A DNA stretch of 64,000 nucleotides from Octopus vulgaris. Lineage: Eukaryota. Made by a program: the position numbers and the translations under genes. This document shows, piece after piece, positions 17,803 through 45,768 of the stretch; position 1 is the stretch's first letter, and each line of letters begins with the position of its first letter. The DNA is taken from NCBI GenBank assembly GCA_951406725.2, contig OX597835.1, forward strand, positions 26,288,001 to 26,352,000, given 5' to 3'. Below the pieces are notes generated by a model. That model was not told where the DNA came from and did no database searches. It saw nothing but the letters and a program-made list of their open reading frames with translations.

Positions 17803-19664
17803 TTTTTTTTTTTTTTTTTTTTTTTATAGCGTGCTTTCACTTCACTACCGAGCGCAGCTCTGTGTGCCTTGGGTATGTGCTGTGATTTGTTGTGATGCTC
17901 TGATGGTTATTGTATGGAAAGTGTTCTGCGTAGGATGTATGCAGTGCCTAGTAGTGCAATTTTCTGTATGTTATATGTGTTTGCAAGTCCTGGTGTTTTT
18001 GTTATGTATTTGTCTGAATATTTTTTTATCATGCCTAATGCACCTACTATGATAGGAATTGTTTCTGTTTTCAGATTCCACATTCTAGTTACCTCTATTT
18101 CCAGGTCTTTGTATTTTGAGAGTTTCTCCATTTCTTTTAGAGACACGTCATCTGCCGGTATTGATACATCAATTAGAAAGCATTTTTTTTCTTCATGATC
18201 TCTGACAACTATATCTGGTCTGTTGGCCTTAATTTCTCTATCTGTGTGTATCGGCATATCCCAGAGTATGGTTGCTTTCTGTTTTCTGTGACCTTTTCTG
18301 GTGTGTGCCTATACCATCTTTTTTCTGTTGTTATTCCATAATGTTGGCATAGCTTCCAATGTATGTAGGTTCCAACTCTGTCATGTCTGTGAATATATTC
18401 CTTCTTAGCCAGGACTGGGCAGCTAGAGATAATATGATTTATTGTTTCTTGTCCATCTCCACATATTCTGCAGTTACTTGTAATATTTCTTTTCATTACA
18501 TGTTTTTGGTAATTTCTGGTGGGGAGGCTTTGGTCTTGTGCTGCAATTAAAAATCCCTCTGTTTCTGCTTTGAGTCCTGAGCTTCTCAACCATTGCTGGG
18601 ATTTTTCTTTGTCTATTTCTTTTGCGTTTAGTTTAGTGCCAGTATTTACCATGAAGGGGCTTTTCTTGCCATCGTTTTATCATGGTTCGTTGCTGTTCTA
18701 TTTTTAGTTTGGATTTCATTTGTTTTATAGCTTTTGTTGTTTCTTCATCTTCTTCTTCTTCTTCTTCTTCTTCTTCTTCATGTTTATTAGGTGGTATGAT
18801 TTCTTGTTTGTATTTGTCAGCTTCCTTAAATACTGAGAACAGTTTTTTGTTTTGCTCGTGTTTTGCCGCTATCTGGATCAGTTTTCCTTCCTTCTGAAGT
18901 AGATATTTTTGCAGTCCTATGGTGGTTATTTTATAGTAGTTTTCCAGCTGTATAAGGCCTCTACCACCTTCTATACGTTGTATATATAGTCTTTCTATGT
19001 CAGATTTTGGGTGATGCATCCTAGATCCTGTCATTATTTTTCTTGTTTTCCTATCTATTTTGGTCAGTTCATTTCGTGTCCAGTTAAGGATATTGTAGCT
19101 GTAACTTATAACTGGGACAGCTAAAGTGTTGATACCTATTATCTTGTTTTTAGCATTGAGCTCTGTGTTTAGTATTGATCTAACTCGTCTATAATATTCT
19201 TTTTTTATTTTCTCTTTCATTTGTGTGTGTTGTGTCTTATCTAGTTCATGGATTCCTAAGTATTTGTAAGTTTGGCTTTGGTCTAATTCTTTTATTTCAT
19301 TGGTTTTATCTAGTGTGATGTTGTTACTCTTAACTAGTTTTCCTCTTTTCATGGTTACTTTGGCGCATTTTTCTAATCCAAATTTCATATCTATTTCTTT
19401 GGTAAATCCATGAACTGTCTTTAATAGTGTTTCCAGCTGTTTGTCATTTGCAGCGTATAGTTTTAGGTCATCCATATATAAAAGGTGGCTGATCGTTTTG
19501 CCGTAACATTTATATCCGCATCCAGTTCTATTTAGTATATCAGATAGAGGCGACAGTGCCAAGCAGAAAAGGAGTGGAGAGAGCGTGTCTCCCTGGAATA
19601 TTCCTCTTCTAATGGGGATGTCTTTGGTTTTCATGAGTCCCTCTTTTGTTTGGAGGTGTAGGAC

Positions 19665-19666
<2 letters not shown>
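17803..19666 (-). mobile_element. R4/Dong-type LINE, 5'-truncated, RT + CCHC + RLE, frameshifted; poly(A) tail; inserted in (TAA)n
   Basis: RGIFQGDTLSPLLF, YMDDLKLY, YKYLG, CRICGDGQETINHIISSC, RHDRV, NRPDIVV and FLIDVS across ORFs 18633-19811, 18209-18652 and 17907-18257. Poly-T at about 17803-17825 and (TTA)n on both flanks. Confidence 0.95.
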
Positions 19667-19749
<83 letters not shown>

Positions 19750-19924
19750 GTCATTGTTGTTGTTTTATTCAGTACTGACGTAATTGAAGATGCATTCGGC
19801 TCTGTTCGCAACCGAAAGTTTCACCTTGTATATAACAGTATGAAATTGCTTTACACCATTTATTCCTAGAAAGGAAGGCTTTAGAATAAGAAAGCTTACA
19901 CTTACCGAATTCGGATACATTCTT

Positions 19925-34754: not shown

Positions 34755-34799
<45 letters not shown>

Positions 34800-34920
34800 A
34801 CAAGATAAGGGCAGAAGAAAAATTCTAATGCCATATACGCCGAAACAAAAAAATTGTCGATAACCATTAAATTTATTCGTCTCGAAATAAACCGATAGAA
34901 ATCTCTAAAAAATTCGTTAT

Positions 34921-34980
34921 TACCGTATTGGTCCAATTTCGGGGTTAATTCACAAGAAATTTTCCCCTCTTCAGCGGCAC
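34921..34980 (-). ncRNA. Type I hammerhead ribozyme (copy 1)
   Basis: GUGCCG-CUGAAGA-GGGG(19 nt)CCCC-GAAA-UUGGACCAA-UA/CGGUA. Canonical core, stem I UGCCG:CGGUA, stem II 4 G-C pairs, near-palindromic stem III AUUGG-A-CCAAU. Confidence 0.9.
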
Positions 34981-35385
34981 ATACGCGAGATATAAATGAA
35001 ATACTTATTCATACCCACGGAAGAAGCAAGCACCAAGTCCCGAGCAGACTTAAGTACCCCAAATATATCCAAATAGAAAAATCTTCGGCGCACCTCGAGA
35101 CACGTATGATTCGAACTAGAAACTTTCACAGAGTGATAGAATCCGGAAGTGAAACACTAATCTATTTATAATTGATATAGGATAAAATTGTTTTCGGGGA
35201 AAAAATTTTATCAATGGCCAGCATATCAAAAAATGCCTTTAAAGGTAAAATTTATACATAATTTACAAGATAAGGGCAGAAGAAAAATCCTAATGCCAGA
35301 TACGCCGAAACAAAAAAATTGTCGATAACCATTAAATTTATGCGTCTCGAAAAAAACCGATAGAAATCTCTAAAAAATTCGTTAT

Positions 35386-35445
35386 TACCGTATTGGTCCA
35401 ATTTCGGGGTTAATTCACAAGAAATTTTCCCCTCTTCAGCGGCAC
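35386..35445 (-). ncRNA. Type I hammerhead ribozyme (copy 2)
   Basis: Identical to 34921-34980, 465 nt away. Confidence 0.9.
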
Positions 35446-35470
35446 ATACTATATCAATTATATATATATC

Positions 35471-42582: not shown

Positions 42583-43845
42583 TACGAGGGACATTCAATA
42601 AGTAATGCACCTGACCCACTTGCAGAAATTTTGAAAGTGCAATTATTTATATCTCTATAGATTAAGTGGCAAATTACAGCTCTGAACTAATTGTGGTTTC
42701 TGATTTACAGGTGTTTTAACTGAGTCAAGTGTGAAATGGAGCCTGTTGAGTGTCGAGCAGTGATCCGGTTTTTGTATTTGAAAGGACGCACACCACGGGA
42801 GACTTTTGATGAAATGAAAGTAACTTATGGTGATGATGCCCCATCATATGACCTTGTTAAACGCTGGCATCGTGAATTCAAACATGGTCGGAACTCTGTG
42901 GAAATAGCTCCCAGATCTGGTCGCCCCCCCCCCCCCTTCTGCCATTGATGAGGCATCTGTCCGTCAAGTTGGGGCTGCCATTTTGGAAGATCGACGCATA
43001 ACTATTCGCCAAATAGCCCATGAGGTCAACATTAGTACCAGGTCTGTGGAAACTTTCATCCATGACCATTTGCATATGCAAAAGGTGTCTGCCAGATGGA
43101 TTCCCAGGTTGCTCACACCTTTCCAGAAGCAAGAACGCGTCGAGTGCTCGAGGATGAATTTGGAGACGTGTCAAGAAGATGAGTCAAAATCTTTGAAAAG
43201 ACTGATTACACAGGATGAAACCTGCGTCCATCGCGATGATCCAGAGACCAAAGCCCAGTCAATGCAGTGGAAGCACCGTGACTCACCTCCTCCAAAGAAG
43301 GCAAGGGTGCAGCTCTCCGCTGGCAAGGTCATGCTCACAGTCTTCTGGGACCAGGACGGAGTAGTGATGACAGATTTCCTGGCAAAGGGTACCACAATTA
43401 CAGGAGCCTATTATGCTTCACTTTTGAGGAAATTAAGAGAAGCTATCAAAATCAAGAGGTGGGGCAAGATCAGCAAAGGCATCCTCCTCCTGCAGGACAA
43501 CGCTCCGGTCCACAACTCTCTTGTCGCCAGATCAGAAGCACAGGCGTCCGGCTATGAACTCCTCCCCCATACCCCTACTCTCCTGACCTAGCACCCTCTG
43601 ATTTTCACCTCTTCCCAGCCATGAAGTTGTTTTTGAAAGGAAAGCGTTTCCCAGATGATGCAGCCTTGATTTCTGAAGTCACGTCGTGGTTGGAGGACCA
43701 AGCTGGGGTCTTCTACAAAAACGGTCTCCAGAGCTGTATTAAACGATGGGAGAAATGCGTAACTCTGGGTGGTTCCTATGTAGAAAAAGACTAATAACTG
43801 TGCCAAGTTTCGTTGCTCTACTGCTATGGGAAGTGGGTCGTGTCA
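42583..43845 (+). mobile_element. Mariner (Tc1/mariner, D,D34D) transposon, near full length, frameshifted transposase at 42736-43795
   Basis: Left TIR TA-cgagggacattcaataagtaatgcacctgacccact and partial right TIR agtgggtcg. Protein motifs: CRAVIRFLYLKG..RSGRP, WIPRLL, ITQDET, VFWD, LQDNAPVH, and a shifted YSPDLAPSDF. Confidence 0.95.
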
Positions 43846-44782: not shown

Positions 44783-44962
44783 TCAGTGCAAAAAATGATG
44801 CAATAAAAATTTTCCTCTAATGAATTGGTGTGATTCAGTATCCAGTTGCATTTGTATCACCGACAATTGAGGATGCAAATAACCAGAATGAGAAAACGTA
44901 CATGGGTAGCATGTGATATAAGCTGCATCTTTTGGCTATTATACTCTTACACACACACACAA

Positions 44963-45005
<43 letters not shown>

Positions 45006-45010
45006 ATAAA

Positions 45011-45559
45011 AATGCAATGCGAAAGTATTGCTTTCCAGTAAAAGATAGCCCGTAAGGGTAAAATTATACATATAAAAGTAAATAAATGTTACAATCTGAA
45101 AAATGGAAAACCTAGAATCGGATAATGCAGTACCGCTTTCAGACTCTTCAAATACGTTTGACAACGTGGATTTGATTTGTCCTCATCAGCTGCATCTACC
45201 TGGACAAAATTTCATATGATGCCACATCTATGCCAGTACACTCGTCTGAACGCCAAAACGTTAACAGAACGATAACAGTGAAGAAGTTTCAATGAAAATA
45301 ATAATGCAATACGAAAGTATTGCTTTCCAGTAAAAGATAGCCCGTAAGGGTAAAATAATACATATAAAAGTAAATAAATGGTACAACGAGGCACGGATAT
45401 TTACTGCATTATCCGATTCTAGGTTTTCCATTTTCATGTTTGTTGCACACACGCGTCTTTACTAGTATATACGCAGTGAAGCTATACTATAGCGTCGTAT
45501 TTATTACGATTGCTATTTTCCAGTAAATATCGGTGCCTCGTTGTACCATTTATTTACTT
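45011..45559 (-). mobile_element. Hammerhead-bearing non-autonomous retroelement with partial tandem and 5' inversion
   Basis: Direct repeat 45011-45094 / 45303-45386. Inverted pairs 45097-45132 vs 45402-45436, and 45368-45406 vs 45521-45559 (38/39 identity). (TA)n flanks. Confidence 0.85.
45124..45196 (-). ncRNA. Type I hammerhead ribozyme
   Basis: GAUGCAG-CUGAUGA-GGAC(34 nt)GUCU-GAAA-GCGG-UA/CUGCAUU. 7-bp stem I, canonical core, minimal stem III one change away from the palindrome ACCGGU. Confidence 0.85.
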
Positions 45560-45571
45560 ATATATATATAT

Positions 45572-45761
45572 ATTCCAAAAAGCGAAGAACAAACACGAAG
45601 GAAGGGCGTGGTACATGTAAAGTATTAGCAGACGCTCAAGGGAGGAAAGAAAGGTGGTTTCACGTTTCGAGAAAACCTGTTCTTCAGAAACAGGAGACAG
45701 AGGAATGTCCAATAGAAAGAAAGAGGGAGCAAAAAAAATCGCCAACGATTCACATGTGGTT

Positions 45762-45768
<7 letters not shown>
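45572..45768 (-). mobile_element. Penelope-like non-autonomous fragment with minimal HHR-like motif
   Basis: UUU-CUGAAGA-ACAGGUUUUCUC-GAAA-CG-UG-AAA at 45690-45658. A related fragment lies at 36361-36428. Confidence 0.5.

Follow-up and report, generated by a model that had tools for sequence, protein, structure and literature searches.

A non-LTR retrozyme of Octopus vulgaris with two paired, fixed 3' end sites and a small excess of 5' ends at the predicted hammerhead cut

Does a genomic copy of a hammerhead-bearing repeat retain the 5' end that the ribozyme gave to its RNA template? This question is raised by an inverted element in a 64-kb stretch of the Octopus vulgaris genome (64,000 nucleotides; subsequently designated the window, to which all plain coordinates refer), in which one arm begins where the hammerhead of the other arm is predicted to cut. 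The first-pass annotation had read the locus as the fossil of an RNA template whose 5' end was made by ribozyme cleavage and which was then copied with a template switch or a second priming event. Rfam at gathering thresholds returned 0 families anywhere in the 64-kb window.

Positions within the repeat unit are given as c-numbers, c1 being the first base past the predicted cut. On its left the element adjoins a (CA)n/(TA)n microsatellite (44949–45004), its likely target, and it starts at 45005 rather than at 45011, where it had been placed initially. Unit mapping resolves a long arm on the minus strand, which consists of c154–c429 (45131–45406; 5'-truncated at c154), c1–c36 beyond the predicted cut (45095–45130) and, past an internal deletion of 137 nt (c37–c173) that had already been noticed in the distal partial copy, c174–c263 at the distal end (45005–45094). 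The 3' end of this distal part, on the 45005 side, represents the second fixed end site of the family (c268 class) and adjoins (TA)n. The inverted arm on the plus strand (45404–45570) comprises c1–c203 with a deletion of 36 nt (~c28–c63); it starts at the cut and terminates 3' at the principal fixed site of the family (c203 class). There it merges into a (TA)n run at the right end (45560–45572), which is partly common with the AT-rich end of the arm, and the outer ends of both arms thus merge into (TA)n. As claimed, the plus-strand arm from 45404 repeats the post-cut sequence, 45402–45434 being the reverse complement of 45132–45100 at 33/33 bases. Joining the arms indeed gives the proposed monomer of 393 nt, but the true cut-to-cut unit measures ~429 nt, the difference being due to the 36-nt deletion in the inverted arm. 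No stop-free frame of at least 150 aa was found over 45005–45570.

At the junction both arms have 5 nt in common (TACTG, 45402–45406), which in the inverted arm extend across the predicted cut (c428–c3), as the annotation had stated. Because the copy combines a GUA cut site with a 5-nt overlap, the junction may lie anywhere from 2 nt before to 3 nt after the cut (c428 to c4), and owing to this spread the window copy alone is not callable as a cleavage fossil. A cleavage origin of the start of its inverted arm appears to us evenly balanced. Immediately to the right of the element, a short TA-tailed fragment (45573–45765) carries a weak minus-strand core resembling that of a hammerhead (45692–45633); the fragment is probably the terminus of a different TA-targeting element, and text resembling this fragment also flanks L177, a diverged relative of the family. 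Judged by eye, the window additionally contains a LINE-like reverse transcriptase (RT) fragment (18209–19820, minus strand) and a mariner-like transposase fragment (42908–43591, plus strand).

The element belongs to a dispersed repeat family. One 20-mer had 705 matches genome-wide at no more than 1 mismatch, and in the 2.8-Gb assembly the best 40 candidates, the window copy itself aside, were 92–96% identical. The unit length of 429 nt was derived from 14 cut-to-cut monomers (range 413–433 nt), and the GC content of the region is 0.34. In a mapped sample of 232 loci, representing 289 distinct segments, tandems reached ~2 units, the longest family segments measured ~840 nt and two whole hammerheads were present in just 5/289 segments. 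The sequence at 45404–45520 does follow the hammerhead in other copies, in agreement with the monomer order proposed initially. When folded as a circle, the unit reached −124.5 as compared to −84.7 ± 5.3 for shuffles, and short inverted repeats are present within it. Each unit carries one type I hammerhead, is short (429 nt, within the 150–450 bp of non-LTR retrozymes), low in GC, arranged in tandem and non-coding; LTR, PBS and PPT were not apparent by eye, and the RT plus GIY-YIG ORF of an autonomous EN+ Penelope-like element (PLE) is absent from the element, which has no ORF. The family is a non-LTR retrozyme, and the element a typical representative of a class already described. Metazoan non-LTR retrozymes, as presented in the accessible text of Cervera and de la Pena 2020 (PMC7229834) and of Li, Clavereau and Pollet 2026 (bioRxiv 10.64898/2026.07.22.740005), share with it the non-coding low-GC unit of 150–450 bp with one type I hammerhead each, a helix III of a single pair capped by a palindromic tetraloop as in dimer-cleaving amphibian motifs, and a proposed link to PLEs. 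In contrast to these, the octopus copies for the most part lie scattered as partial tandems in (TA)n, with fixed ends and often inverted arms.

Matching sequences from sequencing runs are contigs without an RNA label on record and are uninformative on RNA ends. Two contigs starting exactly at c1 were considered as RNA 5' ends and discounted, since the C/A variant that directly precedes the cut is expected to interrupt assembly graphs at this base. Deletions of ~c35–c62 or c28–c63 recur beside a hairpin (c40–c57) in L033, in L035 and at window position 45431, and the deletion in the long arm of the window copy likewise begins at c37; skipping by the RT is a possible cause of these recurrent deletions.

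The hammerhead of the window copy lies on the minus strand (45196–45124) and, as described initially, is of type I with a 7-bp helix I, intact core boxes and a 4-bp helix II; the predicted cut is GUA/C at 45131/45130 and the fold has a z of −2.65. The label "canonical" applies to this type and core but not to the copy's place in its own family, as the palindrome of helix III is gone. A family census showed that helix III consists of one pair with a palindromic CCGG loop, GAAACCGGT followed by C or A being present in 92/122 motifs (GUC as cut-site type in 75/122, GUA in 17/122), while the GAAAGCGGTA of the window copy, which has a GCGG loop, occurs in 1/122. Predicted self-pairing amounts to −3.3 kcal/mol for the window copy and −9.7 kcal/mol for the family palindrome. 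Hammerheads with such palindromic motifs cleave as dimers according to the accessible parts of two reports (PMC4209133, PMC7229834), and the ribozyme of the window copy with its GCGG loop is therefore predicted to be impaired. The diverged relatives L156, L176 and L177 retain helix I pairing through changed letters, and two of the three (L156 and L176) also retain the palindrome in this manner, which suggests that selection acts on the fold. These three loci are older relatives of 66–83% identity with the same layout and altered hammerhead helices. The window harbors a second hammerhead repeat between (TA)n tracts (34797–35450, minus strand; 465-nt spacing), whose motifs at 35444–35386 and 34979–34921 have a paired helix III; an 18-mer pattern of this repeat has 436 genome-wide matches.

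Throughout the anchored and mapped copies, 5' ends are variable and 3' ends are fixed. Among 137 single-arm loci, the 3' end is at c203 in 115, at c268 in 8 and elsewhere in 14, and (TA)3 directly follows 166/176 c203 ends and 59/65 c268 ends (225/241 together). Head-to-head junctions number 63 including duplicate loci and 60 after known duplicates were dropped; the latter comprise 40 c203/c268 pairs, one c203/c203 pair, one c268/c268 pair and 18 with an unclassified end. Hence, 40/42 classifiable inverted pairs join one end of each kind, and the window copy complies with this rule. These data speak for the second priming event of the first-pass annotation, at a fixed second site (c268 as opposed to c203), and against its alternative of a template switch at the cut. 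Overlaps of 2–6 nt were present at 29/63 junctions, indicating that a short overlap is normal there. We also compared the two arms or units of 93 loci with columns covered twice: over 9750 columns, 393 differed, 325 shared a non-consensus call and 13 shared a rare call. Both arms or units of a locus derive from the same variant, which fits circular and multimeric templates alike.

Further features are those of Penelope-type insertions, i.e. a 5'-truncated partial tandem with an adjoining inverted copy, a one-ended tail extension of ~65 nt and a microsatellite target. The tandem-plus-inverted layout with a tail at a single end has been described for PLE insertions (Craig et al. 2021, PMC8557442), and Frangieh et al. 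2024 (PMC11167929) report that in vitro the PLE protein of the anole nicks both strands and extends them from two internal RT start sites. Together with Cervera and de la Pena 2014 (PMC4209133), these sources, as far as accessible, describe EN+ PLEs as having truncated 5' ends, partial tandems, an inverted copy that is itself shortened at its 5' end, a one-ended tail, a preference for microsatellites, two internal start sites of the RT and a hammerhead, all as in the octopus family. The latter differs in having no ORF and a tail of ~65 nt as compared to 30–40 nt in the PLEs described there. With hardly an exception each arm of a pair uses a start site of its own, in contrast to the anole PLE in vitro, for which no strand difference was reported. 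We infer that the inverted pairs arose when a PLE enzyme initiated synthesis once on each of the two strands.

Two other origins of the inversion were weighed against the same pairs. In the twin priming model of L1, the second primer finds its internal site by chance, close to where the first cDNA ends. Twin priming by a LINE enzyme would account for head-to-head arms joined via short microhomology, and LINE-like RT fragments do occur in the window (18633–19820). This model is at odds with the fixed second site at c268 in 40/42 c203/c268 pairs, with the ~50 nt of unit (c154–c203) by which the arms of the window copy overlap and with the lack of a visible poly(A) tail, whereas partial tandems and a tail at a single end are in line with PLEs; we consider twin priming very improbable. 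The second origin is an inversion after insertion at the DNA level, by fold-back or repair and with no RNA end involved. The internal deletions in both arms and the short inverted repeats within the unit would be compatible with such an event, but the deletions differ between the arms, and both outer ends lie at the two standard 3' end sites of the family against (TA)n, like those of 40 other pairs. An origin of this kind is likewise highly unlikely. Two-site insertion of PLE type remains the preferred reading of the inverted pairs.

We then asked how 5' ends are distributed relative to the predicted cut. An unbiased sample was drawn by anchoring on two exact 20-mers and taking for each of them the first 100 matches listed; it contained 179 arms and excluded the window copy. 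In these arms c1 was the commonest single 5' start, with 7/171 arms at risk as compared to 0.7 expected. Genome-wide patterns yielded 9 starts at c1 (8 without the window copy) and 230 read-through copies, i.e. 8/238, 7 of these 8 starts being already contained in the 179-arm sample, so that the two samples overlap. Thus, ~96% of copies read through the cut position and ~3% start exactly there. Starts at c1–c3 are scattered over the family tree, and L286 provides a second inversion junction at c1. The annotation had tied inversion breakpoints to the cut. In this respect no enrichment was detectable (3/118 arms within c428–c4 as compared to 1.66 expected, P 0.23), and the modest enrichment exactly at the cut concerns 5' ends as a whole. 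In a second hammerhead family present in the window, 2/100 arms started at its cut, both of them inverted, and two other odd rows were read-through; this family is uninformative.

The main competing explanation accepts the same element and two-site insertion but regards the cut-site junction as coincidental: cDNA ends would join at any short AT-rich microhomology, the GUA variant supplying TA before the cut and, in the window copy, a TACTG/CAGTA match to c154–c158. Indeed, the 5'-join hazard per nt rises with TA microhomology from 0.003 (0 nt) to 0.010 (2 nt) and 0.026 (3 nt), and among TATATA-joined starts (~23 places read by eye) c7 with 6 starts outnumbers c1 with 4, which shows that TA microhomology matters. 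Hotter AT-rich positions per arm at risk also exist (c131, 4/28). Flank-joined c1 starts are preceded by TA in 6/7 cases as compared to 3/27 other C/G starts (P 0.0004), a phase that would follow from copying of GUA-type templates to 2 nt beyond the cut. A mostly-GUC subfamily has 1/80 c1 starts and the remainder 7/158 (P 0.27). The coincidental reading further agrees with the inversion arms, which are not enriched at the cut, and with the window copy, which is GUA-type with a 5-nt overlap.

As GUA-type templates carry TA just before the cut, we corrected for TA microhomology. Read-through copies are ~34% GUA-type, as counted over 79/79 and 100/151 matches listed, and a matched TACTG site at c322 served as control (3/171 starts). 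The corrected expectation at c1 is 1.9 as compared to 8 observed (P 0.0009, or 0.009 with control uncertainty). An overdispersed model gave P 0.009–0.013, or 0.14 if every template were GUA-type, and the uncorrected comparison of the cut with c322 (8/238 versus 3/171) is non-significant (Fisher P 0.37). Although only ~34% of templates are GUA-type, the c1 rate of 3.4% is twice that of the TACTG site carried by all templates (1.8%), and the background just upstream of the cut (c361–c429) is low, ~0.002 per nt, both of which argue against coincidence. So do c1–c3 starts in GUC-type copies, which have no TA overlap: L006, L101, L044 and L090 are of this type by their own or their partner's hammerhead, L300 is by its own, and L144 probably is by subfamily. 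Typing by nearest neighbours was correct for 134/162 copies and is too noisy for single ones. On balance, we regard a purely coincidental cut-site junction as possible but rather unlikely. The preferred reading is that a few templates had ribozyme-made 5' ends; judged from these sequence counts this is likely, and the cut-site count is suggestive, not decisive. Two observations are added here. Inside the hammerhead (c361–c429), 5' truncation at 0.002 per nt is ~3x rarer than in c241–c330 (0.008). L153 (G000:C1:14003033) starts at the cut twice, with the first few post-cut bases followed by a TA run and the same start again, and looks as if the enzyme had slipped at the template end.

A precedent for a ribozyme cut that shapes genomic 5' junctions, with variable joins primed by microhomology, is found in R2 elements with HDV-like ribozymes (Eickbush et al. 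2013, PMC3774820). According to the accessible text, the R2 cut defines the end of the full-length element, whereas the octopus hammerhead resides in a non-autonomous element and its cut would explain ~3% of arms. In a literature search covering the main text of openly accessible papers, no paper was listed that maps copy ends of retrozymes or PLEs to the hammerhead cut. The cut-site count of copy ends appears to be the new part, the element itself being of known class.

As a candidate mobiliser, the genome contains a young high-copy RT family (L148:2-934 and L263–L282; 150 scored matches, many of 98–99%) with open frames of at least 750 aa, TA-tailed ends, several head-to-head pairs and the Pfam domain RVT_1. 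Its C-terminus, judged by eye, is presumably GIY-YIG-like. A pattern search found no hammerhead in the L148 and L263–L282 loci, and comparison of the 429-nt unit with 20 loci of this one RT family, as a test for a pLTR, gave no match except a copy of the octopus family that chances to lie in L263. In this respect the family may differ from EN+ PLEs, the pLTR region of the one autonomous family compared giving no match. A search for an autonomous partner through the flanks, among the matches listed, and in one RT family yielded no shared sequence.

Taken together, the account that we favor, with somewhat better than even confidence, is that of a hammerhead repeat inserted through priming at two sites in the manner of PLEs, for which ~3% of templates were linear cut RNAs, the arm of the window copy being evenly poised between such a template and chance. 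From the layout of the copies we infer an RNA intermediate and a PLE as the enzyme. Rare loci with two hammerheads would be transcribed and their RNA cut as dimers into 429-nt monomers, most of which would be ligated to circles, a step that has been demonstrated for other retrozymes in the accessible text of PMC7229834. A Penelope-type reverse transcriptase/endonuclease would introduce a nick into (TA)n and begin cDNA synthesis at c203 of the unit RNA; in inverted events additional priming would occur at c268 on the opposite DNA strand. The two cDNAs would stop at variable points and join head-to-head via microhomology, which comprises 5 nt in the window copy. Circles or uncut multimers would make up the majority of templates, and a small share (~3%) would be linear RNAs with a 5' end from dimeric hammerhead cleavage, on which the cDNA runs off at c1.

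The function of the hammerhead in PLEs has been called unclear (Craig et al., PMC8557442), and for the anole PLE the accessible text reports that cleavage is unnecessary in vitro and that 0 RNA-seq reads begin at the cut (Frangieh et al., PMC11167929). Against this background, a single-base excess of 5' ends at the cut would constitute indirect in vivo evidence that cut RNA sometimes serves as template, while heavy read-through would favor circles or uncut multimers as the main template. The rule of one end of each kind strongly constrains models of the origin of PLE inversions and lends itself to direct testing. A more far-reaching possibility, which we put forward tentatively and rate slightly below an even chance, is that hammerhead cleavage inside the cell has left traces in the genome that can be counted, with ~3% of copies having run off a cut end and ~96% having gone round a ligated circle, and that a dimer of the PLE enzyme primes the two strands at two fixed sites of the retrozyme RNA. 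If this is true, copy ends would measure the ratio of linear to circular templates and would also explain the one-ended tail of PLEs.
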